Source: Massalongia carnosa | Lineage: Eukaryota | Length of the DNA: 64,000 nt | NCBI GenBank assembly: GCA_965645245.1 | Contig: OZ287085.1 | Coordinates: 372,001 to 436,000 of the forward strand | Direction of reading: 5' to 3' | Part shown: positions 22,739 through 54,858 of the stretch, one piece after another | Layout: every line of letters starts with the position of its first letter | How positions within the stretch are numbered: position 1 is the first letter of the stretch | The notes under the pieces: generated by a model | The model's database searches: none | Told to the model about the DNA's origin: nothing | What the model saw: only the letters and a program-made list of their open reading frames with translations | Position numbers and translations under genes: made by a program

Positions 22739-22814
22739 TTTGTGGGTTTTTGGGCGAAGAGTTCTCAACGCCTTTGGGTTGTAGGAAGATGGGTTGCCTT
22801 GTAGCTGTTGTGGT

Positions 22815-26749: not shown

Positions 26750-27251
26750 ATTCTCAGTGTTGAACTCTGCAAGGACATCTTGGATAGCTTTATCATGCCA
26801 ATGCTTATAGGGTTGGAATACGCCCACATCAAGGGGTTGCATACAATGAGTCAGATGTGGTATCAGGGGGAGAGGGCGAATGTGAATTTCATTGGCAAGC
26901 TTTATAAACTCAGGGGTGCAATGAGTCCCATGATTATCCATGAGCATCAATTTCTACTGTTTTGTAGGTCCCGAGTTTGTATTCGCAATGAAATGCTTCA
27001 AAAATTCAATGGCTATTTCATCGGTGATGAACCCACTTTCTGATACTTCAATCAGAGTCCCCGTGGGCAGCCCTTCTTGGAACCAGTTCTGCATTATTCT
27101 ACGACCTTGCATGATTAAAACGGGAGAAGGTGGTTGATGAACGGCGGCGTTGATGCTTTCGATTATGATGAGAGATTTGCGATTTTCTGGACTGATTGAA
27201 TAGAACTCCTTAATATCTGATAGAACTAGAATTTCATGACCCTTCATACAC

Positions 27252-29239: not shown

Positions 29240-32200
29240 TTCATACACTCAACTCAAAATCCTGCTTCATCAAAGCTCCAGATATCTTGTGAATGAGTTA
29301 GCCTCAACTGTGCAAGAACCCGCTGATATCGATCAAACCATAATCTTACATCTGACTCCTGAGCCGCAGTATATCGAACAACTGCCAGCAGCTTAGTCTT
29401 TATCTTGTGCAGGCAATTGTCTTTCCACCATTGCCTAAACCACCGCGGACTTAGATCATTGAATTCGGCATCTTGAGCACGTTTCAGAGTATTAATGGCA
29501 GCGAAAACCACTTTATGAGTAGGTTGAATGCCATACGTAATCAGAGATCGAATGAATTCGTGAATGGCTCTGACCTTATGCTCCTCCAGTATTTTGTTCT
29601 GCCCTTCAATTTTCTTCGGCGGCGTCTTTTCACGTTCAATTAAACTGTATAGAGTGATGTCGACGAGGTTGAAGATTCGAGCAGCGCAAACGATGCTCTC
29701 CTTGGGGTTTTCTAATAAAAACTGCTTAGCATTTTGCACGCGCTTTGCAATAGAATCACTGGTTTTAATAAGGTTCTTATTCATGATGCTGCTGCTATTC
29801 ATGATTGAGGTGCGGAGCGGTTGATGAAATAGGGAGAGAGTGATTGACGAAATAGGAGGCATGCAACTGATGCGGTCGCGATTGAATAAAGGTAAATATC
29901 CCGGTTAATCAATGAGTAGTTAGGATGTGCAGTTGATATCTATCTATGGTATGAATAATAATAGCTAAAGGTCGTAGGTTGCGGTCGAGAAGTGTTGCAA
30001 AAAGCTGCAAAATAGGTGATAAAATGGGTGAATCCAGACAAATTCTGAAATTGAAACTACGCAGATCACTTGCCTACGCAGACCGCTTTCCCCGACTAGA
30101 GGTGGTACACCTCGTATGGAGGCAGCTAAGCGAGGCCGACGATTACGGAGAATTGGTGTCGTTGCCAATCCCCAAAGGACCTAGACAGAATTGGACAATA
30201 GACTTTATAACCGACCTTCCACCAAGCATTCGGCAGGGGCAATTTTATGACTCCATCCTAGTAACGATAGACAGGTATACGAAATTCTCTCGTTATATAC
30301 CCGCATGAAAGGACTGGGAAACTGAGAACATGAGCGATGTCCTTGTCGGAGAAATATTTACCAAATTCGGTATGCTAGTGTCGATTGTAACAGATCAGGG
30401 AAGTCTTTTTACCTCCAAATTCTGGTCGCACTTCTGTTATTACCTCCGAGTACGGCTCAATTATAGCACAGCCTTCCATCCTCAAACCGATAGGCAGACG
30501 GAGAGACAAAACCAAACCTTAGAACAGTACCTGAGGTTTTATGTGAAGTATCAGCAAGATGACTGGTTATATTAGTTACCAATAGCTGAGTTTGCTTACA
30601 AAAATAGCTTGCACAGCGTTATCAACATGACACCGTTCGAAGCAATGTCCTGGGAAGCCGCAAAGTTGGAAGATAATATTCTCGAAGCAAGGGACAGCGA
30701 GACCCCAGCGGCTCGCTTTGAGCGTTGAACATGCTGAAACAAAGAGAAAAGATACAGAAACTTCTCAATAAGGCTGTAAAATCTCAAGCTAAGTTCTACA
30801 ATGAAAACCATATGCCCAAGACATACAAAGTAGGTGAGAAAGTCCTGCTGAGCGCTAAAAATATCGAGTCTACTAGGCCATCCAAGAAATTAGATTATAA
30901 ATATTATTGACCATACGAGATAATAACTCTCGTGGGGAAGAACGCTTACCGCCTGCGACTGCCCAGCTTACTGTAGGGAGTACATAATTTATTTCATGTC
31001 TCCTTGTTAGAACCCCACACTATAGATCTAAAAAGAGGATCAGAAGAGCCTCCCGCAATAGAGGTCGCGGGGGAAGAGCAGTGGGAAGTAGAGAAAATCC
31101 TAGACAGTAGGATTCATTATGGTATATTCCATTACTTAGTGTAATGGTTAGGCCACTCAGATACAGATAATCAATGGTTACCAGTCGAAGACATGGAAGG
31201 ATCTCAGTACCTGATTAGAATATATCATCAGCAATATCCAGCAATTCCTGATGATTCTCACGTCAAGAAAAGACGGAAGAGGAACAAGAAATGAGAGGGG
31301 ATAAAGATTGAAAATCCAAAACTTCACTCTATCTAATGGCTGTCGTATCCCTTGCTAACGCCCTGAAAAAGCAAATCACTCCTCATTGACCTTGTAGTCA
31401 TCAAGGTCAATCCCCTCCCATTCTTCCCACGTATCCTTGTGAGGAGGGAAGGCAACACCGTACGACCCGCGAGAGGCCGGAGAGTTCCCGGTGGGAGGAG
31501 GAGCCACACGGGAAGTAGGCGCACGCACACCATCTCCTGAAGGCCCGCGATAGGCCGGAACGGGAAGGAAGCGACCGCAGGGGCGGAGGAGCCGGGGACG
31601 GAGGAGCCGAGGACGGAGACACAGAGGACGGCGCAGAGCGAGAAGAAATTGATATGGCCTCACTAACCGCAAGAGAACGAGCTGAAGACCGAGCAACAGA
31701 AGGGAAATCGCCAGGAATACGTACTTCGCTCAGACCAGAAGGCGGAAGACGTCTTCCACTACCGCGAGGTAATGGGAATCCCCGAGCTCGTCAGGGGACA
31801 AGGAAGAGGCAGAAATAACACGGTGTTCTGGAGTTTTGGGCATTATGATTGTGCTTGTAGAAGGGAGAATGGAAAGAGAAAGATGGGGAGTTTTATGAGA
31901 AGTGGGGGATTATTCACACTTTCTTCACGAAACCTCACTGGAATTCACTACACTGGCCGATAACTCACCAGTTCTACTGGAGGTATGACTCAAACGACAT
32001 GAACGGAGATTCTGGATGCAGCGCTTGAGTCGCATGTGCGAGACTCTGAAGGCAAAAGCATGAATCATGTTCGGAATGTCAAAGAACTCATAACAGGGAA
32101 CTCTGACGGGGGTTAGGCTGAGGATGGATTGAGACTATACACAACGCGACAGCAAGCTCATGAGGACATGAGCCCTAGGAGGAGGGTACTGTCAGGACAG

Positions 32201-32786: not shown

Positions 32787-35162
32787 TCAATACAGGGAGA
32801 TACAACTTCCCCATTCGTTTAACATCTGTCCAACTATGACAAAGCCCCAAACAGGAGCCACAAAGACACTCCATGGCAAAAATGCCAGTGCAACAATAAC
32901 CGAAGGTGGTGGACTATTCATATCTATGGAGCTGGGTATCAGAAAATACTCATAAATTTGTATCTTCTCCAAGAGATAAGCTGGTAGCCAGACGATGTAT
33001 ACCAAAATTTCTGTCACATCAAGGAGAGGCATCAGCAGCCCGAGTATGCTCCCACTGCTCCACCAGAGTGGTATTATGATGCGCTGGGTTAAAGAACTTG
33101 ATCCAGGCTGAAACTGAGATAACTTGTCAACTATGATAATGGGAACACAGCTGATGAAAAGCCCGAAGAAGATAGGCAAGAGGGCTGAACTCCACGTGAT
33201 GTCAGTGATTGATCTGGGTGAAGAAGCAGACGGATAGTTTATTTCGCTGGTCGCGGTTGCGCAGACGACATGCGTGCTGTTCATAATCGCGGCCGCTAGG
33301 TTTTTCTGTGGGATAGGATCGTCATAGCGCTGGAAGCGGGAGCAAGATCGGTGGTATACAGTTGTTTGCGTTATCTGGTCAGGCTGCTTAATGCGCAGCG
33401 CCCTTATTCCAAAATTCTTGCGGTACCATCCCGTAAACGAGTTGGACTTCGAGCCCGGGGGGGTTCGAAGCTTGCCGAACCATTGTTGTACCTTACGTCT
33501 AGCATGCTGTGGATGGAAGACTGACCAGATCAACAGGAAAATTCCATAACTGAATGAGACCAATGGGCTGAGTGTTCTTATAGGCAACCTGGGATTTCTG
33601 TTCCATTTTTTAAGGGAGCGTCCAGCGCGGTGTGGATGGCGAATGCAATAATTTAACCCGAAGTAGACCCATAACAAAGTATTCGATCTCAACTGTGCAA
33701 AAGGCTCACCCTTAAGACTTTTGAAGATGCTGTCAAAAATCCCTTCATCACTCGCGGATATTGAGGAGACTTTGTAGATACTGCATACTTCATTCTCCCC
33801 AGACCGCATCTGCAGGAGGTAGCTGTTGTCGACTCCCTTCGAAACAGCGGTACAGGTTGCGGGTCTCATAGTCATTGGAGAGGTTTGCTGTTTCAAAACT
33901 CTAACGAATGCGGTCCAAACGGCTCGCTTGATGGACGTCGGTGAAATTCCTTTCCAGGTTGTGGCAAATCCGGATCCGTAGCCATTGTCATTCACGGGTC
34001 CGACAAGAGGTATGATCCGACCGACTACTCCCTCAAAAGCCCCACCTGCTTCTATGGCTTCGTCCATGGTCTCAGAATGAACCATATAAAGTGTTGCATA
34101 GTCGGGCGTAAGTAAATTACTGATACCATTGCAGAACGACATGATAGCATAGGGGAGCGGTGTGAAGAAGAATGACACGTAGCCCCAACGCTGAACCTGA
34201 CCGCCATGATGCCGATACACAGTATAATATGCGAAGAGTAACTGGAATATTGACGCTAGAATCTTTAGCACACTTCCACTCGACGCTATGTCGCTGTTCC
34301 GCTTGATCCGTAGTGGTGGCGAAGCCGCTGTTGTCAGACTTGGGATTACTGCAGCAATCTCTCCATGATCAATAGAATTCGAGATCCTCGGCACCACGAT
34401 AGTATTCCGTGGAAGAATGGCGAATGAGTAGCCACGTGGAAGCCTGTATGTCCCATGGATATCAAAGAGAAGAGTATTGACTGTAGTCCGTCCCCAGACA
34501 GTATCAAAGAATATCCACCAGCGTTGGTTTTCCTTCAGCCACGTTGGGTGATAGATCTTGAACGCCGCAACTGTCTGTCTATCAGCTGCTTGGGAATATA
34601 GCCGGAATTGGTGGGAAAACTCACGCTTTGCGTTATTTGTGTCATTTTCTACGGCATCGTCATTGGACAGCGTTTCAGCGTTTGTAGCGATTTGAATTTG
34701 AGCATTCCCGGACGATTCCCGTGTAGCAAGGACGACCTGGAGACTGTCATTCGTCCTCGGTCGCCAGGTGGAATTTCGTACGACAACACATAGAGCTCCA
34801 GCCCGACAGGCTTTATCAAGCTCGGTTACGCCGAATCTCACCCCTCTGGCCATGGCGTTGAGTCCACGCATTAAGCCCGAGGTTGGAAACAGCAACGCGA
34901 GAGTCACGTTGCAGACCGTCACAGGCAGTTTCTCTCCAGGTACCGACTTGATGGTAGCAATATGGGCCACAAAGTTCCCCAAGAAGAAAGTCGCCATGGT
35001 GCGCAGGTTTGTCGGCGGGCACAGGATTCGAGAACTTCCATGTTGAGTAGTGCCGTTGGGCATCTCGACCGTCAAAGGAACTAGAGGCGAGCAGGTGGCT
35101 GCCGCCAGATTCGAGAGAACACCATATACAATTGATGCCCAACGGAAATAGACGAACATCAT
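32787..35162 (-). CDS. Uncharacterised multi-pass membrane protein (~790 aa); a short intron near 34575-34625 is possible
   Basis: Long ORF with an N-terminal hydrophobic segment and several TM-like stretches; FFLGNFVAHIAT, ALLFPTSGL, RAGALCVVVR motifs typical of fungal hypothetical proteins. Confidence 0.7.
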   Translation of the reverse strand: MMFVYFRWASIVYGVLSNLAAATCSPLVPLTVEMPNGTTQHGSSRILCPPTNLRTMATFFLGNFVAHIATIKSVPGEKLPVTVCNVTLALLFPTSGLMRGLNAMARGVRFGVTELDKACRAGALCVVVRNSTWRPRTNDSLQVVLATRESSGNAQIQIATNAETLSNDDAVENDTNNAKREFSHQFRLYSQAADRQTVAAFKIYHPTWLKENQRWWIFFDTVWGRTTVNTLLFDIHGTYRLPRGYSFAILPRNTIVVPRISNSIDHGEIAAVIPSLTTAASPPLRIKRNSDIASSGSVLKILASIFQLLFAYYTVYRHHGGQVQRWGYVSFFFTPLPYAIMSFCNGISNLLTPDYATLYMVHSETMDEAIEAGGAFEGVVGRIIPLVGPVNDNGYGSGFATTWKGISPTSIKRAVWTAFVRVLKQQTSPMTMRPATCTAVSKGVDNSYLLQMRSGENEVCSIYKVSSISASDEGIFDSIFKSLKGEPFAQLRSNTLLWVYFGLNYCIRHPHRAGRSLKKWNRNPRLPIRTLSPLVSFSYGIFLLIWSVFHPQHARRKVQQWFGKLRTPPGSKSNSFTGWYRKNFGIRALRIKQPDQITQTTVYHRSCSRFQRYDDPIPQKNLAAAIMNSTHVVCATATSEINYPSASSPRSITDITWSSALLPIFFGLFISCVPIIIVDKLSQFQPGSSSLTQRIIIPLWWSSGSILGLLMPLLDVTEILVYIVWLPAYLLEKIQIYEYFLIPSSIDMNSPPPSVIVALAFLPWSVFVAPVWGFVIVGQMLNEWGSCISLY

Positions 35163-35790: not shown

Positions 35791-38390
35791 CACCAGCTTG
35801 CTGGGGGCTAGTGAAGTTGTCACCGTGACGGACGGCACCAGGCGTGTAAGCGGGATAGGACCGGACGCTAGCAGGGAGGTGAAAAACTCTTCACCTCCTC
35901 CATCCCCCATCTCTTCTCTCTTTCCTCATCAACACTCATCAAAAATCGGGTTTCGCTGTTTTTACACACACACACTCACACACACGCAAACATATTATTC
36001 ATATTCTTACACCAAAGCGGGCGAGAGAATCGCCAGACGATTCCTCCCCGTGGTGCGACCGGCAGTCGGGGTCGAGGCAGACCACACGCGGCCGGGGAGG
36101 CCGAGTCACACCTCAATCAGACTCTAGAGAGGCCACAATAGTAAATGAGTCACGCCACTCCTTCCCCGAGGCAATCCCGCCTCCAGACCGTCGCGCGGCC
36201 CTCAGGGCGGAAGCCGAAAGGCTACGAGCCGAAGCAAAAGCCAGAGAAATCGAGCAAGAGGAGAGCTCGAACGCGAGATACAACGTCTCAGAGACGAAGC
36301 GGTGCTGTCTCGCACAGAATCCGCACCACCCACAAATTCTTTAATACTACCAGCGAGACCGAGCGCGTTCGCGACATTTCATGCTGAGGGTGCGTCTCCT
36401 ATGTTCCATTCTCTGATAGCTCGATTTCCAATGGTAGACACGGAGCACTTCAAAAACATCCGTGACAACAAGTTCAAAGTGGAGAATATTATAAAGCTGT
36501 CGACCGAATACGAGTCGGTTCAGCCCAAAAACAAATATCTAAGAATCGGGTCGACCGAGGTGGAATATCGGGAAGAGGACGCCCTGGCCTCGGACGCACG
36601 AGGAATCACACATCTTCTTCGCGCGTTTCTCATATACTGTCAAATCGTCATTCACATCGCTCACGCGGGCACACAAATGGAACTACAAGCGGCAATGCAC
36701 GTCTACATCGATCAATTGCTAGGATGGTCTCTTCTATACACGTTCGAATCAATTCGTCAATTCCACTTCGGGTTTCATAAATCCCGCCTGGTGGAGGGCG
36801 TGGACGACCCGCGCGGTTGGCGGACCCCGAACAGAGGTTCAGAAGAACGAAATCTCCGTCGAAAAATCGATTACAACGCTGGCCCCGATCTTCGTCGAAC
36901 ACAGAGCACGAATTCGCTCGTTCAACGCATGTCAAGTCAAGACGATCAACGCGGCATAGCAGCGTGCAGACGATACAACAACGGCGGCGATTGGCCAAGC
37001 AACTGCACATTTCGTCAGGTTTGCGCGTCATGCGGACGCCAGCATACGCAACGCGATTGTCGCATGCGCCTCAATCCATATCCTCCACAGCAAAGCAAGC
37101 CCAGTTGACTATCCGTCTCAAGCGCTCTCTCGTTCATTTCCGAGAGAGACACCGACGCGGATGCGGACGAGGTACGATGCCCACTGAAGTCAGCGGGATG
37201 GAAACGACGATTGGAGAAACATCCAGACAGTGTCTATAGAAGGACAATTCTTAACATCATTCGATGTGGGGCAAGGATTGGCTACACAGGGCCAAAACAG
37301 CGTATCATAAGCCCGAACCTATCTTCTGCCAAAGATGCACCCGAGGTGTTGTCCAAAGATCTGGACGAAAAAATTCAACATCACCGTGTACTACCCGTAC
37401 GGGAACCACCGCCTCACTTTATGTCCTCCCCACTGGGCCTCGTCCCCAAGCCCAATGGCAAATGGCGAAGAATTCATCATCTGTCTCATCCACGCAAGGG
37501 CTCGGTCAATTATCACATTCCCGCTGAATGGGGCGCCCTAGAGTACACATCATTTGACGAAGCACTAGAAGCTCTTCTTGACGTCGGACGAGGAGCATAC
37601 CTCGTAAAACGCGACTTCGCGGACGCCTTCCGGCACATACCCGTCGCAAGAGCGGACTGGTGGCTACTGGGTTTTCAGTGGAACAATTCTTATTGGATGG
37701 ACATCTTCCTCCCATTTGGTCTTCGTACCTCCCCATTTATCTTCGATCTCTTTGCGAAGGGAATAAACTGGATATTAGTCGTTCAGAACTGGCTAGTCCT
37801 ACATTATTTAGATGACTTCCTCGCGATTGTCAAGACGAGCAAGGAGGCATCCCGTTACGAGTCCGCGTTCGACACGTTGTGCGACGAGTTGGGCATGCGT
37901 ATAAACGCATCAAAGGGAGAGAGGGGGCAAATCTGCGATTTTCTCGGGTTAACACTAGACACCCAACGCATAGAAGCCCGCCTACCTCCCGATAAATTAA
38001 AAAAGGCCATCGAATGGGTCAACAGCGCATTGACGCAAGACTATATGTCCAAAGACGAATTACGTTCCCTGCTGGGGTTTTCTATCATTTGCGGCCAAAG
38101 TGGTCAAACCATGCAGAGCCTTTTTACGCCGCCTATTTACCGCCTTCGGCGAAGACACGGGTCGGATCCGCATAGTCGGCGACATGCGACTAGATCTATT
38201 ATGGTGGCAATACTTCTTGCCCCGATGGAACGGGGTTCAAATCTTACGATCGCTGAATACTAGAGAGGAAATTCGTCTATGGACAGACGCTTCGGGAACA
38301 TGGGGAATGGGCGGGTACTATTCGGTGCACCGAACCCCACACTCCACCGAAGCGGGCACGCTTTCTCGTCATTCAGATACACAAACACTA
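35791..38390 (+). mobile_element. DIRS/Ngaro element copy 2 (gag, RT, start of RNase H), cut off by a Tc1 element
   Basis: Near-identical inverted copy of ~5667-8365; homology ends at TA 38389-38390. Confidence 0.92.
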
Positions 38391-39822
38391 CGAAGGATGA
38401 CGCTGAAAGTCCTTGCTAACGCTAAATATGCAGCTAAAAAAGCCACTTTACATGGGTATATTTGCATGGATAGATATTTATTAAATATCAATCCATCGAA
38501 TAATCGCATGAAGCTATTTAGAATTACCACCTCCATCATCTTTATCACTCACATTCATCGCTGTCAGTGCTTTCTCGTTTGAGATGAGCGCGATGATATC
38601 AAACACGGCGATCTTCTGTATTATACGGTCGTACGACTCCGATCTCTCTACCTTCTCTATACTCGTTACCTCCGTCCAACAATATCACCTTGTCAACATG
38701 TCGCTTTATACGTTCAATCCAGGACTGAATTCTTTTCTGCGTCAACTCCTCCGTCCAGCACTTTGTCCAGGCCATTTCAGCCTCAATACGAGTCCGCGGA
38801 GCACCTAATCGAGTGGTTCTTCGCTTCATCCAGAACCAACAAGGCTTGATCATGTTCAGATCAGGAGAGTTTCCAGGCCATAACAGACGCATGACGTTGA
38901 AATCCATAAAGATCAGATTTTGATGTTTGGATGCGTGGCTGGGCCTTGTCTTCCTGTTCGATAGTGTTTGGTCGATCTATCATACATTCTTTTGCAAACG
39001 GAAGAAGCTTAGGAATAAAGACGAGTTTTTGATAACGATACCAGTCCACTCCTCCCTTGCCATCTCGAACGACTTTACCGTGTGTTTTATCCCATTTCCA
39101 GATAGGTTTTCGACCTCCTGGATTACGTAGCTTCATTCGTCTCATGCTGGTTTCTAGCTCCCAATTCTCTTTAGCTTCTGATTCTAAAGTCTCATTGAGT
39201 TTATCTAACTCAATTTGAGCCTCTCTTTTCTCTTTTGCGGTCTCTGTTTTCCAGATATGAAAAGGTCCTTTCTTATCGTACGAAAAACAGCCCCAAAACA
39301 AAAACTCGGAGCATCCTTTCCATCTACGTCGAATACACGTTTTAGCATACATTTCTTTCGAGGTACGCCACTGAAGTCTTCTTCCACGTCTAGAACCCAA
39401 TATAATGCTTGTTTCGCCAGTCCATATAACGTTCTTCCAATCATCAATAGTCCAGTGCTGATATCGCAAACAAAATTGCAGACGAGCCTCTTTCATGATC
39501 GAATCTAGACCTGGCTTTTTCGTGCTTTTACAGGGGCGAAACCCATTCTGTTTAAAGCGTACGAAGCATAGTAGTGGAGGAGAGTTTATGATCAAAGCCA
39601 ATCATAGCTGATGATTTTTCTCTGCTATTTCGATCTTGGACTACATTATTCAATATAGCTTGCTCCACCTCCGGTGTAACCTTTTTAGGTCGTCCTGAAC
39701 GAGGTGCATCTTCTATATATTCTACTTTTAAAACACGAGATACAGCTGGATCATATCCACGCTGTCGTGCTTTGATTTTGAGAGCTGAAATCGATCTTGT
39801 GGAGACTCCAGTCACTGCTTGC
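38391..39822 (-). mobile_element. Tc1/mariner-type element, degenerate transposase, 5' end missing
   Basis: DAPRSGRPKK, WKNVIWTGETS, FWGCFSY, QEDKA, WPGNSPDLNMIK. Confidence 0.85.
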
Positions 39823-40321
39823 TTGCCTCAGTACCTCAGACGTGCGTGGCTCAATGAGCCGGCTAAGCCCCTCCGGGTTAGCCTATTTTCGCTAAGCCCC
39901 TTCGGGTTAGCGTCGCTGCTGACTAACATCAGTGCGATAGCACGTCTGAGCGCAAAACTCAAAATTACGGCCAGATCCGCGTAATAAAAATTTTAGCAGT
40001 GCAACCATTCCTTTTATGGATTTAATACAATGATTAGGGTCGTATTAGTTTACCAGAGACTGTATTTTATACCAAAAACGCACCTCTCAAGATGGATGAC
40101 TCGATAATCATGTGTTATAACTACTGTCAGGCTAAGAAAAGCGATGTGAAAGTCGATTAAGTGATAAATTGTTCGCTTTCGCTCAATTTTGAGGTTGATG
40201 AACTGATTATTTTCATGTGGCGCGATTACATTGAGTTACAAAGATCATGATGATATGAATAACGACGGCCAATCAATGGTATTGTATGATTTATCTAGAT
40301 TGAAGCTATCTGACGAAAGCC

Positions 40322-43000
40322 ATGGCTCTTGTCGGGGGCCCCTCCTCGCCACTTACCGACCTACGAACAAGTCCCTTGACTCCCGCCGGTGCGCTCAAGC
40401 GGCCCCACCCATCGCCGTCAGGCAGTAATGATAGCTCACCCTCTTCCTCCTCCCCTCCTGCCTTACCTGAAAAAAATGGAGGCGCGAAACGCCACCGCCG
40501 GCGCATATCAGATTACGACAAGCTGGTTGAGGTGCTTAAATTTCTGAGCTCTCTAAATTGGTCGGTAAAAGATTTTTTATCAACACTTTGTAAGAATCGA
40601 GCCCGTCATAGTATGCGAAAGGCGCAAGGCCAGCTCTTCGATTTTGTCTATGTCGATATTGTGCGGCAAGAAGACTTTTCAAGCCTCATTGGGCCTGGTA
40701 GAATATCCACTATCCTTCGCGAGAGAGGATGGGTTTGGGCCGCGGATGTGCTTCGTGAAGAAATCAAAGCTTTGGCAGATCACGCAGCCTTTGGCCCTTT
40801 CCAGCCGCCCTCTGCGACAGTCGAGTTTGGGACCTTGGAGGCTATTAAACTTGCTGCATCTGCCGCCAAGCAGTTGGCGCCACGATGGCTTGAGCTAATT
40901 GATAGTGTTTGTCGCGAGGCTCGCCCGCAGGAACCTCTCGATGTGACGTTGGATTCTCCCAGCGGCCGGCACACCGTTATATTGGCAATGCTTTGTCACA
41001 AATTGCGACCAAATAAGGCGACCAATATTCAGTCCGTCTTAGGCCTTTATATTTATCAAGGTGGGGCGAGGCGGCGAGTTCTAGATACACTCTGTCATTT
41101 TGACCTGACGATGTCATATACTACCCTGCAGCGGCGCATGTTGTCCTTGATTAAGGAGGCCGAACGAAAGGTTCAGATGCTAGGACAAGGCTCAAACATG
41201 ATCTTGACATACGATAACTTTGACTTCGCAGAAGGTAAACGAGGAGAGCGCACGGGGGATAATAGAGACGTCAGATCAATCACTACCGCTCTAATTTTCC
41301 AGGGGCAAGGATTCGATGCCGGCGCTTTGAGGCAGGATATGTGGCGCCCCGCCACGCATCTTTTATCAGCTGAAAGAATTGCGCGAAAGCTGGAGACTGG
41401 TGATCTCGAGATGCAGGTGAGTTCAATACAGGACGAGGTGTATATACCGCGCTCAATCGCTAATGCACCGCGTACCTAGATTCGTCTTCATCATCTAGAG
41501 TCAGCGATTCGAGCGCTTTATGGCCCAGAGATCGGCGACGTTCAACTTCCTTGGTCGACTGCAATGCCCGTGCTGAATAAGATGAAAAAATACAAGACCA
41601 ATTACATTCCTATCAAACCAGTCATGAAGGATGAGAGCACAACATCTAATAATATTCAAATATTGGAGGATATATTTGTGCGACAGTTCAAGTTCAAGGA
41701 GGATGACTCGACGTTTGCGAGCGTCATTCGGCTTATCTATGGTGACCTCAAGACATGGTCGAGAATGCAATCTGTCAAGGAATTACGTCGTGGGATATCG
41801 GAGCAATCTTTCGATCGGTTCGACTGGATTTTACCGGGATTAGGGTTATGGCATCTTCGCTTTAACATGCTGCAGCTTATTCATAAAATACATTGGGGAG
41901 AGGCCCAGCCGGTTGATCCTTCGACTCTTCAATATGCCGCCGATCGGTGGGGCCGCGCTCGTGTCGTGCAGCCGAACGATTTCCAGGCCTTAGAGGATCT
42001 GATCATTCAGAGCTATCAAGCTAGAATCGTTGGGACGTGGATTAGGTTTTTACGAAAGGATGGATATGCTCCGCAGCGAATCGAAGCAACTATTTCGTGG
42101 CTCACAGCGCAGACTTGCGGGCAGGATGGCACCTGGATGAATATGTTGGGCAGGATATCTCGCAAACTTCACGCGGAATTACCCTCAACGTCAATAGATA
42201 TGCTTCCTCCAACGCTTGATCAACAATTTCAGAATCATCAGAACTTCTGTGATCACGTTGAATCGTATCTAACACTTCGATACGCAATCAAATATGCGGA
42301 TATTGGACTACTTCGTCACGCATTGCGCCACGCAACGGTGATCTTTCAGGCAAGCGTAGCTGGCACCCCGAAATATGCGCAAGCTCTTCTATACACCCTT
42401 CATGCGATTGATTCTTCCGCAGCGACCATAAGGCTACAGGAAAGTATTTTAATGAATAGTCTTGTCAATTTACGCGGTGACGAAGAGCCGAGTTTTGAGA
42501 CTGATCGGCTTTTAGAGATACTAAACAATAACCTCAAGACGTTCCAGCACGAGCGATCTTATTTTTCAAAGTATAGTGACACCTTGCTCGAGAACTGGGC
42601 ACTCAACGGTCCATATCTTATGAAGCTCAAAGAAATCGTTGAGTTTCACTTTGGAAGAGTCAACTCTTCAAGGCATCCAGCAAAATCGGCCGCAGAGGAT
42701 GTGTGGGGCATGGCTACGGCACTAGCGCATAAATCACTCTGTAAAAGAAGCTATGATCGATTTTCAACTAATCCAACAGCTAATCTTTATGTTGAGGGAT
42801 TGAAGAAACTTGGAGAAAATGTATTAAAATACAATCAGCAGTATCTTTCCGAAGAAATTTCAAAAGAAATTTCAACAGACGACCTTGAGGGTAAGTATGA
42901 AGCCGAGCCCGATTTTGTCAATGAAACAAAGCAGGTCCCCGACAGCCCTGTCATTTCAATGGCCCGTCTCGAGATATCCGGCGGTATGTTTTTTGATTAA
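40322..43000 (+). CDS. Academ/DUF6589-like DDE transposase, ~870 aa, intron 41417-41479
   Basis: YDNFDF, YGDLKT, GLWHLRFN, DRLLEILN motifs; a GTGAGT...GCTAAT...TAG intron joins the two ORFs in frame. Confidence 0.75.
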
Positions 43001-43059
43001 ATCATCGATACCACGAGATAGCCTAGTCATGTAAATCCGCGCCGCGCGGCTTTACAGAG

Positions 43060-45304
43060 TCAGAGGTAGCGGACGGGGCACTTTCTTTCTTGTCTAGATC
43101 GTGTCGGAGGAAGGGCCATGGGTACATTCAGCGACAACGCTTCCATAGGATCTCGAGGCGCTTTTTTGGTCTTTGATGCCTTCATCGATGATTTAAGAGC
43201 ATCAACATTGTCAACAACGAGCGCCGCATCGGAGATATTGTGATTAGGCGCAGGATTCTCGCCCGATGGCTCCGTGCTCTCGCTTTCCTTCGAGACTTTC
43301 TTCTTGACCGCATTTCGCTTTTTAAAAACCTTTCTCGACATATATCCTTGTTTGATCATCCAGTTTTTCCTCCGTTCCTCAAATTCAATACTGGCGGAGT
43401 TGCATGTTAGGCTGGGTAATCGTTTTCTCTTTATGTCGTTGTGTCGTTTCCATTCCTCGAACATGTCTCCCTCGTCTAATCTCATTGCTTGACCCCGCTT
43501 TAAAATTTCTAAAAGCTCGGCGCCGTAGGGCCTAATACCAGTCCATGTGTTACCAATTCATCGCCGCATGGTGGGCTCGTCCACAATCTGATCCGCCCAA
43601 GTGGTCAAAGAATTCAGTACCTCATCGGGCATTATCAATGATGGGAAGTATCGCATATGTGAATTTGGGAACTTTTCCTGCGCCTTGGCCTCCCTCCATT
43701 CTCGAAGTTTAAGGGTGAACCAAGGCCGCCTAGACGAGTCACGCTCGGCCGTTCTATTTAACATCTCATTGGCGGCTGTTGATGTCTGAAAACTTGGATC
43801 GCAAATTGAACAGCAAGGTTGCGGCTTAACATAGGCCGACGTTGGATACACTTTATCATTGAAGAAATTCAAGCCAATACCTCGAACGCAACCATCTGAA
43901 GGCACATTGAATATCTCCCAAAGACCCGGTGGCATATCTCGTCGCCGATCAGCATCCTTTTGATTGATGCGGCGTTTACTGGCCTTGGATTCAATCTCGA
44001 TTCCCGCGTCATATCCGTCCTGTTCGTCCATTTTTGATCCGCTTCTTGGACCCATGCACCAAGAAGGATGCAAAAGAGTAAAATGCGCCTGTCCTCGACC
44101 GCAACGCGAAGCACGACCTAAACGTTGGTATAGCTTCGCCATTGACGAGGGTAGCAGCCATTGCGTAACTCTCATAACGTCTGGATTATCAATACCAAGC
44201 CCGTATGCATCCGTTGCGATCAGGATTCGAGGAAATTTACATTGATTCGAGGGCATTTCGAAGCGAGCCGCAATCCTTTCTTTGTCTTGGGTGGCCATGT
44301 CGGAAAAGAAAGGCGCGACCCAACTAGCAGCCTCAATTGGATAGGACAATTGATTCATCCATACTTTCATTAGCGCACACGCCTTTTTGATAGATGAAAT
44401 TGAATCCATGAAGATAATCGTTTTCGGAATATCAAAAGGACTCTCAGCCCGTGTTGGTAAAAGATGTTGAAGATCGATCATGCTGTTCATAGGCCGCTGT
44501 AGACTGCTTGTCTGTATGTATATCTCTGGACGATCAAGCGCTGTTTGAATAACAGTACTTTCGTTATCAAAGCCACAGCGATCTTTAACGCTCTCTAGGG
44601 TTCTTGGATCCAGCGTTGCAGACGCACCCAGAAAAGGAATACCATCTGGTAATCGTGTACGAAGCACACCGAGATTGAAGTATTCGGGCCGGAAATCTCG
44701 CCATTCGGATACAAGATGCATCTCATCAAGAGCTAAAAGACATAAATTCAAGAAGAAACTTGGATGCCTCAGAACCTCCTGATTAAACAGCTTTGACGTC
44801 GCTATCTCTGGGCTAGTAAAAACTATTCATATTAACGAGTAAGTTTTTATATTTATCTCAATCATAATTTGAATACACACCATGCGTATAATTGTTTTCA
44901 CGAATTAACTTTAAATTAGAAGAATTATTACTATCACCGTCCAACACGAAAGGCTTGCATCCCTCGATAACGTTCAATTTCTTGCACTGTTGAGCTTCTA
45001 AGGTCTTGAGAGGCATGATAATTAAAGCGATCTTAAGACAAGAGAACATTAATGGCATAGCTTGAAAGATAATACTCTTTCCAAATCCAGTCTTGGCGAT
45101 AAATATCAGATCCTTTTGATCTTGTGCTAAAGTCATGATAGCGTCAACTTGCTCATTCTTTGGATAAAAGCCGAATTTACTTAAAATCACGGTCGTCACC
45201 TGCTCGCGAGTTATCGACGCTATAGGATCGTCCATTTCGATGTGTTCGCGAGCGATATTCGACGATTCGCGAGTTGGATTCTTAGCCCGCAAAACGCACA
45301 TCAA
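43060..45304 (-). CDS. RecQ-like SF2 helicase, intron 44823-44880, one in-frame TGA at 43558-43560
   Basis: AKTGFGKS, FTSPE, DEMH..SEW..FRPEY, SAT, ATDAYGLGID, QRLGRASR, C..R..CCSIC Zn motif and an HRDC-like segment. Confidence 0.85.
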
Positions 45305-45825
45305 GCAAGTTCATCACATTCAACGATTTTAGGCTTTCGAAAACAACGCTCGGAGGATCAGATTAATGATCAGAAGCGCCGACAATGAAAAACTGGAGCT
45401 AGTGACCCGTTGAGTCTGCTGTGGTGGTGTCGAAATTTCGAGTCAAAGTCTCGTCCTCGTCGCGAGATCGATATTGCGACTCAATTTTGCATCGATATGT
45501 AATTAAAATATTGATTAATCGATAGAATGTATATCAAAGCATCATTTCTATTATTACATAATTTATGAAATGTCGTTGCGCGTTGTTGATTCCGCCGTCA
45601 ACTTGATTCTTGATGATTTTTGAGGTTAAGCCAAAAATTTGTATGAGCGCGCACCAAAACAAGCCGGATCTGACAAAAATACAGAGTTTTGCGCTCAGAC
45701 GTGCCGCCCGTAGCATGCGTAGTCAGCTAAAGGGCCGCTAACCCGAAGGGACTTAGCGAAAATAGGCTAACCCGGAGGGGCTTAGCCGGCTCATAGAGCC
45801 ACGCACGTCTGAGGTACTGAGGCAA

Positions 45826-46071
45826 ACATTTAAACTGATAAAAATTCTGCTTACTAATCATCATTTCTTGATGACTAATTTTCAGAATTTTTCAGAATTT
45901 TTCAGAATTTTAAGAATTTTCAAATGTGTTTAAAACGTCTAAAAAACATGTTTAAAAATGACATAAAAAATTGACCGGGTCGAACGGGTCAAACGGGTTA
46001 ACCCGGGAACGGTTCCCCAACCCAGCGAGTTGAGCCATACAGGTTCCCCAACCCGACCCGTTGCGCGGCGT
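45826..46071. mobile_element. Probable hAT-like terminal fragment with ACCCG/CGGGT subterminal repeats
   Basis: Clustered CGGGT/ACCCG motifs ending ...CCCGTTGCGCGGCGTA; no coding part. Confidence 0.35.
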
Positions 46072-46235
46072 ATATATTGTCATTATAGCTCCAAAAAGAA
46101 CGCCCAAAGTATCTCTATTTATCTTCATCACAAAATTTAGAACCCAGCAATACATTGACCGAGAGAGAGCCAGAAAGCGAATAAAAAGTCTATTCAAAAA
46201 GATGAACAGTTGGCACAGCTTGTGAACGCAAAGGT

Positions 46236-47968
46236 CTACTTCGTCATGAACCGTATGAAAGATAACAAATCTATAATCATCCGCATAGTTACCGCAGCAA
46301 AAAATGGTAAAATGTTGTTTGAATTACGAGGTTGCTTTTTGCAAGTCCAGCTATCTTTTGCATAGTACAGTGACAAATTTAGTGGAAAGGAACGTCCGTT
46401 GATGAAGGGGCAGCCATGAAAGAAAGTCAGAAAGAATATTCCTTGCTTCTGGAATTGACCCGGACTGTCACTCGCCCGGCAGTCGCCACCCGCGCATAGC
46501 CCCCAAAATCCGATCAATTGAAACTCTGCCGTTTTCTGGATATGTGCCTTCGAAACAGGGTTGTACTCATGGTAGTCTTGCTGTTTCAGAGTTACTGGCT
46601 GTAGACTGAGGTCATTAGTTGGCACGCCCCTGAAAAAAAACTGGCGATGTGTAGGCGACTTTACCCCATTAAAATCCCCCCCTGTTCATCAACCATCCAC
46701 ACCAACATGCCTCGTAAGCAACGTGCAACTCACTACGATACTCCCATTCGAGCTAAACTTCAAGGAATTTATGAATATATTCTTGATGAAGGCATCGTAC
46801 ATGATCCACAAAATCTTTTCAAGAAGTATGGCGGTTCGGAACGAGCTGGCTACAGAATTATTCGCAAAGGAGCTTCGACACGGACTCGTCATCATATAGA
46901 GCTTATAGAAACGCGAGGAAGACGATCAAAAATCATAGGCGAGTAAGTACGAGAGGCTGATCGGCTGTTTCAGGAGGATGAGCTACAACTCGAAGGAAAA
47001 CGCTTGACATGGGAACAAGTTGCGATGGAAGTTGGAGCAGATGTTGTGGGTCGTACAATGCATAACGTGCTACGTGCTGCATTGAATTACGAGAAATGTC
47101 TAGCCTGCGTCAAAGGATGGCTGGCCGACCCTCCTATGCAAAACGGGTGGAATACGCTCATATAATGCTGGCCAAATATCCTAAACCTGAAGATTGGTAT
47201 TGAGTACGATTTAGTGACGAAGTTCATTTCTCCTACGGGCCCGAGGGCAAATTACGCATTATACGTCAGTCAGGCACACGCTATAGATGGGATTGTATAC
47301 AACATCGTGATGCGCCAGCGGAGAAAGATCGAAAGAGACTGCATTGTTGGGCGGCTGTAGGCCACAACTTCAAGTCGGATATTATATTCTACGAAGTGCC
47401 AGGCAACAGCAATGGCAAGATGACGCATCAAGTATACATTAACTCACTACTTGAGCCCGTTGTCAAGCCGTGGCTAGATCGAGGGGATGATTTTGTGCTC
47501 GAAGAAGATGGTGATTCCGGGCATGGCACAGGCAGGACGAGAAACGCAGTCAAGAAATGGAAGGAGGATCATCGTTTAGAGCATTATTTCAACTGCTCTT
47601 CTTCACCTGATTTGGCTCCTATTGAAAACAGCTGGCAGCCCACAAAGGAGCATATTAAAAAGTATCCTCATTGGGACGAAGCGAGCTTAAAAGCATTGAT
47701 TTGTGAGGGCTGGGCGACAGTCAGTCAGGAGTTTATTAATGAGAGAGTACGATCAATGCCTCAACGGCTAAAGGACGTCATCTCAGCCGAGGGGGCCATG
47801 ACTGGTCATTAATTTGATGTAAATAGCTTTCAATTGACTGGTTATCGCAATGTAAAGGTGAAATGTTGATAAAAAGGGGTAAAATTTAATGGGGTAAGCT
47901 CGCTTACACGTTGCCAGTTTTTTTTTCAGGGCCGTGGTTGGATAGAAATCCTGGTTCTGTTGATTCAT
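46236..47968 (-). pseudogene. Small ORF (MNQQNQDFYPT|NDLSLQ...) interrupted by the 46623-47936 element
   Basis: The frame is restored when the element and one GTTGG copy are removed. Confidence 0.45.
46623..47936 (+). mobile_element. Complete Tc1/mariner-like (DD38E) element with ~55-bp TIRs and a 5-bp flanking repeat GTTGG; transposase has stops and a frameshift
   Basis: TIR CACG(C/G)CCCTGAAAAAAAACTGGC; VRFSDEVHF, EEDGDSGH, SPDLAPIE. Confidence 0.85.
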
Positions 47969-48027: not shown

Positions 48028-48324
48028 GATTTTTATTTAATTTATTTATTCATTAAGCGTATGCATCCTTAGGATATGACGCTGTGACTGCTATTCATGT
48101 ACATAAACAACAGTCAGGAAGTGGAAACCTGGCCCCCAGGGTAAAACCACTCCCTTTTATTTCATATTGAACGCAACGAGATCGCTCTTCTACCACGCGG
48201 TGCATACACCCAGATCTTCAAGCGCTAGGAATCCTATAGACCCGATGAACTAGACAGTATATCTCCACACGTTCGACGAACATTCTCTCTCTTTAACCGT
48301 TTTGACTCAATAGATGATAAACTG
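48028..48324 (-). mobile_element. Second copy of the LINE 3' fragment seen at 141-690
   Basis: Close similarity to 155-434, with an A-rich tail on the minus strand. Confidence 0.8.
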
Positions 48325-50833
48325 CGGCACGATTTCTGAACATCCGAAAGAGCTTTTCTAGCTCGCTCCTGGCCCCGAGGTAAACATCCGAGTAGCCGGT
48401 GGCTTCGTCGGTAAAGGACACAAAATACTTGGTCCCTTGGTTATTGGGCACCCGATATGGACCCCAAAAGTCTGAATAGACTCGTTCCAGACGGCGGGTA
48501 GCCCGTTCTGGTGGGTTTCGGTTGATTATTCGAGTCATTTTCGTCTGAGTACATGTGATGCATTTGCATTCCTTCTCATGGTCATGTAACTTGGCTCCCA
48601 CTCCATTAGTGGCTTCATGGAGGGCAGTGAGTCTGTATGCTCCCACGTGCCCCATGCGGCCATGCCATAGTAGGTATGGGTCTCCTTCTAATTGGGACCG
48701 AGTGCTAATTGCTTTTTTGTTGTCTTTTGCAGTTTCTGGCATTCTTGGCAAATTCTGATTTCCGGAAGATCTTTCGCTGATATTTGGATCAGAAGTAATA
48801 GGGATTTCTTCCTCGGGATCCTCAGTGGCTATCAGGGCCACTCCGCTTCCTACGGATCGGAGCAGGTACGTGTTTCCCACCAAAAACCCGGTGGCGAGGC
48901 AGGTACCTCTCCACAAAATTTCGACGCAACTCAATCCAAACCTCACAATCATTCCTCTAGCTTGTAATGCCGAAATTGACAAAAAATTCGCATCCAGCTC
49001 AGGTACGTATAACACTTCTGTGAGTTTGAACTTCTTATCCTCCAGCTCCACAGCCACATCACCTTTACCAGGTGATTTAATCTTTACCCCATTAGCTATC
49101 GTCACCCAACTTACCTGCAGTGTAAAGTTTGTGGATAGTTTTCGATTGGCCGTCATATGGCGACTGGCCCCTGAGTCAATAATCCACTCATTCGGGGGTA
49201 TTACTTTGGAAGTGAGTTTTGCCACTCTAGCAAAACTCTTAGGGGAGGAGCACTTCTAGGAAGTGCGATAGCGCGCCTCATTGTTGACGTAGTCGGTGTA
49301 ATCCTCATCGTCGCTCTGGTCCACGTGGTCAATGGCCATGCGACCGTACACTGACTCGTCGTCGCTATCCTCACTGTCGCTGTCCCTTGTGCCGGATGCT
49401 TTGCGTGCAAGGTGACCTCCTCGGCCCTTGCCACGTTTGCCATCCCTTAACTTTTCCTCTCCCTTACCTCCGTCCTTGGCTTTCTTGCCCTTTGATTGGG
49501 CCGTGCTGGCGGTATATTCATTGTAGGCCTTGCCTTCGTCACTGGCAAGCCATTCAAAACACTTGGTTTTCACGTGACCAGGTTTCTTGCAGTGGTAACA
49601 TTTCCCCTTAAACTTATAGTGCTTGGCGGAGACCTTATTAGCGATTTCATAGGGGTCCCCGCGTTATCTCTGGCCATCTGCTCGATTTCCTTATATTTTT
49701 CAATCACCTTCCGAAACGTGAGGTTTTCCAAGTCGTTTAATTGCAATTTCACCGCATTATACCGCTCGTGATCCACCGAATCCATTAGGACTAGGGCCAT
49801 CATGATATCGGATGGCTTCACCTCTGGGTTGATGTTTGCGATGGTATCTCTCATATCTTCTAGCTCTGCTGCAGTCTCATCCACTCCTTCCTCTGCCTTG
49901 GCCTTATGCGTATGAAATCGGCGGAGCATGGGGACCAAGCGTGTTCTGGAGTCTTTGCCGTGAATTTCCTTCTGGGCATCCCATACCCCTTTGGCAGACT
50001 GCCGCAGTTGCACATGCTTCTGCTGCCTTTCATCCATGGCTCCCATGAGGATGGTGATTGCTGTGGCATCATCAAAGATCCACGAGTCTCTATCCAAAGG
50101 CATGCTTCCTGGTGGTTCGAGTATCTCTCCACTGACTACTTTCCAGAACCCTTTGGCAATTAAGTGCACCTTCAAAAGGTGGGGCCACAGCCTGTAGTTG
50201 TCGCTAGTAAGTTTTGGCAGTTTTACTTCACCTTTCACACCGGCACCCCTTTTATATCCCCCATCAATGGCTGTCATAGCTGCTAGGCCCTTGTCCTTTG
50301 ATGAGGAGGCCTTGCTAGCCTCGGGGGTGGTGGATGCCCTCATGGCACCTCCGGTATCTTGGCTGTCTTCTGAGGCAGACATTTTGGTGGTGAAGGAGTT
50401 GTCCTATTCGAGTGCCGAAATGGATAGCTAGGAGTTCAAACAAGCACACGGGCTATATCCCCTAAGGTAAAAGATCTAGTGAAAAATACTCCTGGATTTG
50501 AATAGAGTGCTATACGGGCTCATAACCTGTTGAACAAAAATATCTCGGCAAATTCCAATAGACTTCACTTTACAATTGCATGGAACATTCTATGGGAATC
50601 TATAATTCCGCTATTATCACACGACAAGGTCCCTGCGACGAACGCGATGGAAGTTTCTCGAAGACTCCATGACAGCCATATTCGGTGTTTATATTTGGGC
50701 AAATAATTCCACCTCTTTCTTTCTTAGATATTTCAGTTGGTTAAGTTCAATTTAGTTATAGAGAGCTTCAAGCGCAGCATATCAGCCTTTTCGTTGATTC
50801 AGTGCAGCTCCCTCAGCCCCTTTTATTTCAACA
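48325..50833 (-). mobile_element. Ty1/copia 5' half: LTR 50528-50833, PBS, gag (frameshifted), protease, partial integrase
   Basis: TGTTGAA...TTCAACA LTR; GGTTATGAGCCC; CYHCKKPGHVKTKC; WIIDSGASRHMT; WHGRMGH; YSDFWGP. Confidence 0.9.
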
Positions 50834-52915: not shown

Positions 52916-54858
52916 ATGGCTCGTGGTCAAGCGAAATCGAGTACCAAAAACAGTCGGCAGCAAGCCCAAGGTGAGACATGCTTCACATACCAAGCCTGCT
53001 TGCCTGACTGTTAATAGAAAGCGGCCTCAAGGCATCGAAAAACGGCCACAACCTCTTTGCAGGAGCGCACGTTTGGACCAAATACAACAGCAAACCGGAT
53101 CCAAAAGCCAAACCACAAAACCAAAGCCCACACTCCCATCTCCATCAGCAAGCAATACTCCCAGCAAAGAGGCAGGTCCGTCATCTTTAATGCTTTGTGA
53201 AGCTAACTCAAGTGAAGGTCCCACAAAGCTCGCCTGTCCCTCCCAAAGTTGTCAATTCTCCAGAGTGGACACAAAAGTCCAGTCCAAATCCCCGACCTGA
53301 AAAGATCAAACAGCCCCGCTCTCAAAACAGGCACGAGTCGACCCGAAAACCTGATCGAAAACGAAAGCGATCGCACAACACCGAAGACGTTCAAAACGAG
53401 CCTATTGAAAAACGGGCACGAATCTCGTCACCAAACTGTGCTGCTGAAAGTAAAGAGGAAATCAACGACAATGACAGTGAAAAAGATCTTCCAATCGAGC
53501 ATTGGACAAAGACAGGACGCTGGCCTGAGAAACTTTTTCAACCGGATCCCAATATGAGCCAACAACTGACCAAAAAAAGGTCATCTTCTGCAATGAGCTA
53601 CAGCCAAGGCGTCAGAGAAAGCATCTACCCAACCGCCCATACTTCAACATACGAAAAAGAGATTCTCGAGCCGGCGGGAATCATTTTAGACCAACAAATA
53701 GGTGAGGCAGCAATTGGACATGACGCCCGAGAACTATGCCAGACCCTACTGAAAGCCACTTACGAAATTCCTAAAAACTCGCTTTTCGAGGGCAATCTTT
53801 TCTGGAAGGTCATCAACGGTGTACGCAATGAGGGTGAAGGAAGAGTCGTACGAGACTTTCAACCAGATGTCGTTCCATCAGCTGGAATTCTCTCTTTCCG
53901 TGGTTTATCAAAAGTCAACTATCTAAAAGAGACGGTTAAAATACCCTGGAATAACGTCGTCTCTCTTGCGGGTCCCATACCATGTCCAGATTTTACAGTG
54001 GGTCTCCTCCCATCTGCATTCACTAAATCGGAGATCGACAAGCTTCACAGTCGCCATAATACATCCGATACACCGTCGAGGTTTACCGGAAACTTGTTTT
54101 TCCCACTTTTCACTTGCGAGGCGAAATGCGGCGCCAACGGACTCAATGAATCCGATCGCCGGAATGCTCGAAGTGCTGCTACGGTAATTAATGCGATTCT
54201 TTAGCTCTACCAACAGGGAGAGAAGACCCGCCGGGAATCTGGAGCCGCATCTGGAATAGATCAACTGCATCAGGAAATCCTTTTCTTCTCCGTTTCCCAT
54301 GATCACACTATTGTCAAGATCTTTGGCCATTACCCTTTGATCAAGGAGGACAGGACATATTTCCATCGCCATCTCATCGAAAGTTTCGATCTCACCGCAC
54401 GCGACGGTGAAAATAGATGGACGGCTTATAACTTCGTCCGCAAGCTGTACGACCATTTCGCCCCAATTCATTTGAAAAGAATCCGAGATGCTATCCCCTA
54501 TTTGCCTGAGCAAAATTCCGAATCATTCATATCCACCAACACTGCTGAAGGGGAATCAGAATTTGCCGATTCGCAGGAAATGGCGACAAGTGCTCCTGCG
54601 TCACAGAATAACGAGAGCTTCATAAGGCCTACACTGCCGCCAAAGAAGAAGCGACAGAACAAGGATACTGAGCTTGCCATGCTACAACAGGAGCTCACCC
54701 AGGAGAAGAGAGAGAGAGAGTGTGTGTGTGTGGAGAGCAAGCAGGAGCTAGAGAGAGAGAGTGTGGAGAGCAAGGAACGACAAGCGGAGCTCATGGATTT
54801 GCTGAAGGAGCAGAAGGAGCAAAAAATGAAGCTCATAGACATGTTGAGTAAAGGTTGA
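52916..54858 (+). pseudogene. Putative PD-(D/E)XK nuclease-like protein (DUF7924-like) with C-terminal coiled coil; in-frame TAG at 54202-54204
   Basis: PCPDFTVGL, FPLFTCEAKC, FFSVSHD, HRHLI, RWTAYNFVRKLYD; ORFs 53197-54204 and 54337-54858 are in the same frame; 5' exons approximate. Confidence 0.6.

Follow-up and report, generated by a model that had tools for sequence, protein, structure and literature searches.

Is a RecQ-like helicase gene that lies beside a hypothetical gene, with inverted repeats around both, a gene of its host or part of a transposon, and if the latter, of which kind? The question is raised by a segment of contig OZ287085.1 of Massalongia carnosa (assembly GCA_965645245.1), which we studied within a stretch of 64,000 nucleotides (contig positions 372,001 to 436,000; hereafter the window, in whose own numbering positions are given). 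The segment, 39823..45825 (6,003 bp), holds a gene of the Pfam family DUF6589 and a convergent helicase gene, and a preliminary description made from the letters of the DNA had read it as an AcademH-like element. That reading is supported by four blocks of a published Academ profile found in the DUF6589 protein and by a RecQ-like helicase gene within the terminal inverted repeats (TIRs). We conclude that the segment most probably belongs to a young, multicopy transposon family of the Academ superfamily and represents a copy of the AcademH type, which carries a helicase. AcademH, a lineage of Academ with a helicase gene that Kojima is said to have described in 2020 (Mobile DNA 11:15), is among the least studied groups of eukaryotic transposons.

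Precise Termini and Terminal Inverted Repeats

The element begins with TTGCCTCAG and ends with CTGAGGCAA. Its left TIR (39823..39979, + strand, ~157 nt) consists of two aligned blocks and a gap, and its right TIR (45665..45825, - strand) measures ~161 nt. The outer arms (39820-39917 and 45731-45828) are 95% identical over 98 nt; an inner block (39940-39979 and 45665-45704, 83% over 40 nt) extends the alignment past the gap, so that each TIR comes to ~157-161 nt. The preliminary description had correctly seen inverted repeats enclosing the element, while its length of ~140 bp for them was too short. The 30-nt terminus starting at 39823 occurs exactly twice in the window, where shuffling expects no occurrence.

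Contigs from four public runs, placed on 38800-46800, depart from the window at 39822/39823 and bear out the bounds of 39823 and 45825 that had been proposed. Other copies of the repeat in the left flank diverge from the window at 39822 (three contigs of run X1 and one of run X2), and run X6 contains an element copy with a different flank just before 39823. Thirteen ends, from the window and eight related loci, start with TTG(C/T)CTC, and each adjoins unrelated flanks. The terminus reads TTGCCTCAGTGCCTCAGACC in metagenome loci L001-L004 and TTGTCTCG..CCCAGACC in L008, L009 and L011; T1, T2, G3, C5, T6, C7 and CAGAC are invariant in 10 aligned ends, and the outer 20 nt of the TIRs (TTGYCTCRG..CYCAGAC) are kept across sub-families. 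Right ends of L009 and L011 were looked for and not found, the candidate at L009:9653 having three mismatches and no target-site duplication (TSD).

Several observations on ends stand apart from this. The TIR pattern gave three single matches in prokaryote genome contigs, with neither gene nearby, which we took as chance. In L008 (2007-2063), a right end (to 2031) and the left end of another copy (from 2040) lie tail to head with 8 bp (CTGTGCTG) between them, and the DNA upstream of that right end is degraded-looking, with 8-37% G+C. Possible TIR-to-TIR joints in run X1, resembling miniature inverted-repeat transposable elements, have short sides and may be inverted-repeat artefacts of the assembly graph; they were not used.

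Two Genes in One Mobile Unit

The TIRs enclose exactly two convergent intron-containing genes, as had been described, with one intron each and with their 3' ends 59 bp apart. A metagenome scan with the single helicase protein returned no relative, and a scan with the helicase profile returned 14 loci. All four of these that hold at least 1.5 kb of element DNA past the helicase (L007, L008, L009 and L011) have a DUF6589 gene there, convergent with it. Two others, L003 and L004, have lost internal sequence by deletion and retain a DUF6589 remnant of 91 residues; L002 stops shortly after the helicase, and the other seven loci are cut by contig ends or are duplicates of L011.

The two proteins have also diverged in step. 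We compared pairwise identities in seven elements, namely the window copy, L007, L009 and four transposase/helicase hit pairs, each of which we assumed to lie on one contig because the contig sizes of its two hits are equal (5685, 10167, 5535 and 12760 nt). Transposase and helicase identities were correlated with a Mantel r of 0.894, a value reached by 1 of 5040 label permutations. Between diverged copies, the ratio of nonsynonymous to synonymous substitution rates (dN/dS) was 0.13-0.22 in the helicase gene and 0.12-0.15 in the transposase gene; given these similar values, the helicase appears as constrained as the transposase, with purifying selection on both. The two genes thus travel together and co-diverge.

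The family is young and present in multiple copies. P0014, a protein with 99% identity to the window helicase, heads a 90% cluster of 43 members, of which those listed are on contigs of 1.3-3.8 Mb, and one identical 553-aa protein is found on 10 contigs. In run X1, read depth is ~5,540-5,925 on element-internal contigs and 171 on the unique right-flank contig, and in run X2 it is 90-138 on the element and 5.6 on the flank; depth being a rough measure and no copy number, we infer from these values only that copies number in the tens. The window copy shows at least 10 differences from the family form within the 6-kb element, and 12 further ones are found over 8 kb.

These data bear on a simple alternative, in which a RecQ paralogue of the host and a hypothetical gene unrelated to it happen to lie between inverted repeats and form no mobile unit. 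Public annotation would seem to agree with it, relatives being labelled 'superfamily II DNA helicase RecQ' and 'hypothetical protein', just as the preliminary description had predicted, and so would the lack of a TSD at the window copy. Depth, however, stays evenly high between the two TIRs and falls in the unique flank, the precise termini adjoin unrelated flanks at all 13 ends, the helicase cluster has 43 members with the listed ones on megabase-size contigs, and the gene pair is kept in distant relatives. The helicase also falls under the RecQ-family cut-off, and RQC and HRDC domains were not found in it (see below). We regard a pair of host genes as an extremely improbable explanation. Since the helicase gene lies inside the TIRs, is multicopy, recurs beside a convergent DUF6589 gene and co-diverges with it, we take it to be a gene of the element. 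Labels such as 'hypothetical protein' and 'RecQ helicase' therefore inflate counts of host genes and of helicases. The named relatives (Teloschistes, Icmadophila and Xanthocarpia) are all lichen-forming Lecanoromycetes, in keeping with the earlier assignment to an ascomycete-type genome. Rfam and tRNA scans of 39000-46800 found nothing.

A DUF6589 Protein With the Academ Signature

The first gene starts with an ATG at 40322. Exon 1 (40322..41416, + strand, 365 codons) contains the first putative catalytic aspartate, in YDNFD; a 63-nt intron (41417..41479, +; GTGAGT...CTAAT...TAG) carries an in-frame TAG, and exon 2 (41480..43000, +; 506 codons to 42997 and a TAA) contains the Pfam DUF6589 match with GDLKT, WILPGLGLWH and DRLLE. 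Spliced, the gene has 871 codons, its single in-frame stop being the one that the intron holds. Both the open protein of ~870 residues with an intron and its YDN, GDxxT, GLWH and E motifs had been described correctly. Among relatives, matches of exon-1-type open reading frames (ORFs) end at query 361-370 (e.g., P0065, P0068, P0075, P0081 and P0092) and those of exon-2-type ORFs start at query 388-415 (e.g., P0064, P0062, P0008 and P0089). The introns of both genes are inferred from the sequence and from such ORF breaks at matching places in relatives; alignment to the annotated relative P0011 gave no clean intron test.

Exon 2 matches Pfam DUF6589 (PF20231) with an E-value of 6.8e-62, and the family comprises 1,178 representative proteins at E <= 1e-3. 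A profile of the transposase family found no sequence-level relative in the PDB, and an ESM Atlas search with the exon-2 ORF returned DUF6589 clusters only. Look-alike clusters of DUF6589 are commonest in Basidiomycota, Mucoromycota and Arthropoda, which we treat as a lead only.

To which superfamily might such a protein belong? A hidden Markov model (HMM) named RNase_H_Academ, as given in the supplement of PMC5751038 (Muszewska et al., 2017), has 465 positions and was made from 44 sequences, its sources being the alignment of Yuan and Wessler and RepBase sequences (PMC5751038). Its most conserved positions, as printed there, are D3, N4 and D6, g190-d191, H223, and D450 and E454. All of these have counterparts in the window transposase, whose residues are numbered here on the read-through translation. 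The HMM string f-D-N-w-D (2-6) corresponds to YDNFD (297-301); g-d-q-p-l-y (190-195), within v-v-l-t-g-d-q-p-l-y, to GDLKTW within RLIYGDLKTW; w-l-v-p-f-l-g-f-f-H (214-223) to WILPGLGLWH (502-511) with no gaps; and D-e-a-l-E (450-454) to DRLLE (728-732). The consensus of the four matched blocks is DN[WF]D, GD, W[LI][VL]PxxGx[FW]H and DxxxE, in the same order and at compatible spacing: from the first to the second aspartate (D1-D2) 188 positions in the HMM vs. 156 in the window, from D2 to the histidine 32 vs. 36, and from the histidine to the glutamate 231 vs. 221. A forecast made from one part of the profile had placed D2 at 187-194 and the histidine at 223, and they were found at 191 and 223; a forecast of the glutamate at or before 444 missed by 10 positions.

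We scored these blocks over 46 HMM rows, as four ungapped blocks in their best collinear placement. The window transposase scored 55.1 bits (14.1, 7.4, 22.8 and 10.8), a value reached by none of 3000 shuffles of the same protein (mean 21.0, sd 4.2, maximum 38.1). Scores above 38.1 bits were also obtained for 14 of 17 full-length DUF6589 relatives, several of which are closer still to the profile, with GDQxT and PxxGLFH. As negative controls, 27 helicase/RecQ proteins scored no higher than 26.0 bits, and five long ORFs from elsewhere in the window no higher than 24.0. These results support the identification of the DUF6589 protein as a putative Academ-type DDE transposase, with D298, D475 and E732 as its predicted catalytic residues, and Pfam DUF6589 itself appears, by the same comparison, to be the Academ transposase core. 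No publication stating a link between DUF6589 and Academ was found in the literature searched, and the supplements of PMC10799480 mention neither DUF6589, PF20231 nor Academ. The sole relevant DUF6589 paper found speculates on virulence or epigenetic roles.

The same features allow a second alternative to be weighed, that of an element of the KolobokH type. KolobokH elements are fungal transposons of the Kolobok superfamily that encode a RecQ helicase, and as described in PMC9587614, they have TTAA TSDs, 5'-RR...YY-3' termini and a C/DxxH motif, with the helicase fused downstream of the transposase. As fungal DDE transposons with a RecQ-type helicase they resemble the present family, and we see in them a parallel solution in another superfamily. 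In the family studied here, however, the termini are 5'-TT...AA-3' with every end starting 5'-TTG, TTAA duplications are lacking (TTAA abuts none of 13 ends, including those of the window copy), and the helicase gene is separate and convergent. The window motif GLWH (family consensus GLxH) is like the g-f-f-H of Academ and not C/DxxH, and the Academ blocks match at 55 bits. A KolobokH-type element is accordingly very improbable.

A RecQ-Type Helicase as the Second Gene

The helicase gene reads on the - strand. Exon 1 (44881..45235, ATG at 45235) contains motifs 0 and I with TGFGKS, the intron (44823..44880) has 58 nt and reads GTGTGT...AG, and exon 2 (43060..44822) contains the DEMH box, Helicase_C, a zinc cluster of four cysteines and a conserved basic C-terminal region before the TGA at 43062-43060. 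The spliced gene has 705 codons, ending at 43063. In 10 related loci (L001-L010), the exon-1 match ends at query 143, the last exon-1 residue, and eight of them have an exon-2 match beginning with residue 1 or 2.

Pfam domains in the protein are DEAD and Helicase_C. A 25-member profile of the helicase family matches WRN (5e-33) and Escherichia coli RecQ (1e-25) best in the PDB, followed by RECQL5, BLM, RECQ1 and RECQ4, with DEAD-box proteins appearing only from 1e-8. The PDB alignment runs through the RecQ zinc-binding cluster, whose four cysteines show little or no variation in the family. These profile matches and conserved cysteines bear out the earlier reading of the second gene as a RecQ-type helicase with a zinc cluster. 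The protein shares core motifs with cellular RecQ helicases (E. coli RecQ, WRN, BLM and RECQL5), including DEMH-LVSEW-x-FRPEY, and is ~30% identical to a bacterial RecQ. It differs from them in several respects. The NCBIfam model recQ_fam is the best model for exon 2 of the window (1e-28), but its score of 100.4 bits falls short of the curated cut-off of 219.8; neither an RQC nor an HRDC domain was found by domain searches; the basic C-terminal domain is specific to the family; and the gene is multicopy within a transposon. For HRDC, the only trace was a Pfam match of E = 3.2 over 13 residues, and the term 'HRDC-like' in the preliminary description is therefore unsupported. Matches in an ESM Atlas search with the C-terminal region were all below 0.9.

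Relationship to AcademH and the Missing Target-Site Duplication

How close does the element stand to AcademH itself? The two-gene architecture agrees with the description of AcademH, a TIR element of ~6 kb in a fungal host with an Academ-type DDE transposase and, as a separate gene, a superfamily II (SF2) helicase like RecQ. According to PMC10799480, AcademH occurs in Ascomycota, Basidiomycota and Mucoromycota and is low-copy in fungi; the window family differs in being high-copy and very young. AcademH from lichen-forming Lecanoromycetes or other lichen fungi was not reported in the literature that we searched. A further difference lies in the TSDs of 9-10 bp reported for AcademH (PMC10045372), which were recovered at neither the window copy nor L003. 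The same source describes AcademX as an Academ transposase fused to an XPG nuclease, with 3-4-bp TSDs (PMC10045372). With AcademX, the element shares the transposase signature, the profile deriving from Academ alignments as stated in the text of PMC5751038. Its accessory enzyme, in contrast, is a helicase with a gene of its own. An XPG domain was detected neither in the window transposase nor in any of 66 aligned relatives, and no longer, fused transposases came to light when looked for (weak evidence).

The flanks of the window copy offer a reason for its lack of a TSD. To the left lies a Tc1/mariner-like transposase remnant (38861..39822, - strand), cut at 39822, whose intact paralogues continue with sequence absent from the entire window. 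The right flank is a different repeat, starting 3 nt past the element, and the flanks read ...CTTGC before it and ACATT after it. As the two flanks come from different sequences, the window copy has been rearranged since insertion, by one of three routes: ectopic recombination between copies, an adjacent deletion, or a nested insertion.

Three points limit the assignment to AcademH. Allowing the termini to shift by up to 3 nt, there is no direct repeat of 4-12 nt at the window copy (best 50% identity) or at L003; these are the only two two-ended elements in the TSD search, the former with flanks from different sequences and the latter on a short-read metagenome contig that is possibly chimeric. 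The comparison with the Academ profile spans 46 of 465 HMM positions, in blocks picked after parts of the profile were known, and as such a post hoc tenth of the profile it is good evidence of homology, short of a full profile search. Finally, the comparison with AcademH and AcademX was made by description.

The element might instead represent an Academ lineage that acquired a RecQ-like helicase independently, or a sister clade of Academ proper, like AcademH without belonging to it. This would suit the comparison by description, the unseen 9-10-bp TSD and a D1-D2 spacing 32 residues shorter in the window than in the Academ profile. It would also suit the repeated capture of RecQ-like helicases by DNA transposons, as illustrated by KolobokH and Kolobok-1_CCri (PMC9587614). 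Against a separate capture stand the two-gene layout, which agrees with that of AcademH, the reported occurrence of AcademH in Ascomycota, Basidiomycota and Mucoromycota (PMC10799480) and, as the lead mentioned above, the taxa in which DUF6589 look-alike clusters are commonest. We consider independent capture unlikely, and we retain AcademH as the probable affiliation of the element.

State and Distribution of the Window Copy

The window copy had been called near-intact, which overstates its condition. Relative to the family form, the transposase has one synonymous and two missense changes (S702P and Y755H), and the helicase has three missense changes (S88N, L357S and I423F) and one nonsense change, W540*. 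The last is a premature TGA at codon 540 (43558..43560, - strand), where the family, including P0014, has TGG (Trp). A single stop had been described near the end of the helicase; it is indeed single and lies at 77% of the gene. It deletes the C-terminal 165 residues, a region conserved in the family. At position 43558, where the window has T, every one of the four runs reads C (T>C), so W540* is private to the window copy.

In runs X6 and X7, labelled as organisms C and D, the element is present at >=99% identity (8/8 and 9/9 contigs), and wherever the window has a private variant these runs match the family form. The Tc1-like repeat of the flank, abundant in the runs of organisms A and B, has no depth in either of them. 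This pattern could reflect a recent spread between hosts, or close relatives that differ in repeat content. One run with element-bearing contigs is labelled 'lichen metagenome'.

Fold-Prone Ends and a Possible Role of the Helicase

What might the helicase act on? Each TIR contains two 21-nt imperfect palindromes, GCTAAGCCCCTYCGGGTTAGC, at 39862-39882 and 39891-39911 (+) on the left and at 45737-45757 and 45766-45786 (-) on the right, which are candidate protein-binding sites. The palindrome has four matches in the window against none expected, and similar ones lie near both ends of L006 (9093-9112 at the left end and 281-299 at the right-type end). They are enclosed in a stem-forming box (39835..39950, +) in which the second CCTCAGACGTGC box pairs with an inverted copy ~100 nt inward. 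The left-end stem has a folding energy of -35.8 kcal/mol (z -6.5; equalled by none of 200 shuffles), and the right end has the same stem architecture (z -4.5).

When 11 ends were folded as single strands, seven of them, from three sub-families, shared a free tail of 8-19 nt and a long stem around small hairpins, with z from -3.6 to -8.6 and none of 200 shuffles folding as well. The other four (L003 right, L002 right, L011 left and L006 left) folded no better than shuffles; two of these come from deletion derivatives. The palindromes and inverted boxes may simply be repeated transposase-binding sites, and they could also be a helicase substrate.

A model built on these features would have the transposase bind the terminal boxes and the 21-nt subterminal palindromes and then cut and paste the element, with the helicase as a dedicated cofactor of transposition. 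For the latter we tentatively favour a role in melting or remodelling the stem-loop-prone ends and in opening about one turn of target DNA, which would fit the 9-10-bp duplications reported for AcademH. A somewhat less likely role, and the next in order, would be a RecQ/BLM-like processing of the excision gap that restores the donor copy. The window copy, for its part, would need full-length helicase supplied in trans from intact sister copies. We found no functional test of an AcademH helicase in those parts of the AcademH literature that we examined. The present family suits a transposition assay with and without helicase, being young, present in tens of copies and bounded by exact termini, with both genes under selection, and it includes both intact and naturally helicase-truncated copies.

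A bolder proposal would be a helicase-dependent DDE variant that works on stem-loop ends (seven of 11) and integrates without a fixed TSD, in line with the two two-ended elements, in a family perhaps now spreading between lichen fungi. The idea of spread is based on copies at least 99% alike in runs labelled with four organisms, two of them without the flanking repeat families. Taken as a whole, we think this proposal improbable.

Other Features of the Window

The rest of the window is a nest of transposons. A large inverted duplication (5667-8365 and 35791-38390; 96-99% in several blocks) carries an RVT_1 ORF in each arm (5797-6963, -, and 37109-38260, +); its arms are two inverted copies of a long interspersed nuclear element (LINE)-like retrotransposon, ~27 kb apart. 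A Copia-type long terminal repeat (LTR) retrotransposon occupies 17990-23398, with gag, integrase and RVT_2 in ORFs 18249-21776 and 21780-23009 (both -) and 113-nt direct repeats at its bounds (17990-18102 and 23286-23398). Another fragment of Copia type occupies 48296-50403.

Two pogo/Fot1-like DDE_1 genes are found at 754-1563 and 12651-14747, one of them within 60-nt TIRs (12651-12710 and 14688-14747), and a Tc1/mariner DDE_3 gene (46605-47809) lies to the right of the Academ element. Inverted repeats of ~240 nt (25904-26147 and 29899-30148) enclose ~4 kb with a nested inverted pair (27252-27345 and 29146-29239), and two long ORFs (604 and 791 residues), neither of which matches Pfam at E <= 1e-5, lie at 23602-25413 and 32790-35162; all three regions (25904-30148 and the two ORFs) may be further unclassified mobile elements.

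Two adjacent ORFs at 53191-54855 jointly span Pfam DUF7924 (E 1.3e-30 each) and appear to be parts of a single gene that a stop or an intron interrupts. Finally, an NLR-like gene at 58163-61166 (-) combines an NPHP3_N/NACHT-type N-terminal part with many ankyrin repeats, and tandem repeats of 102-105 bp at 58180-59514 are its ankyrin-repeat array.

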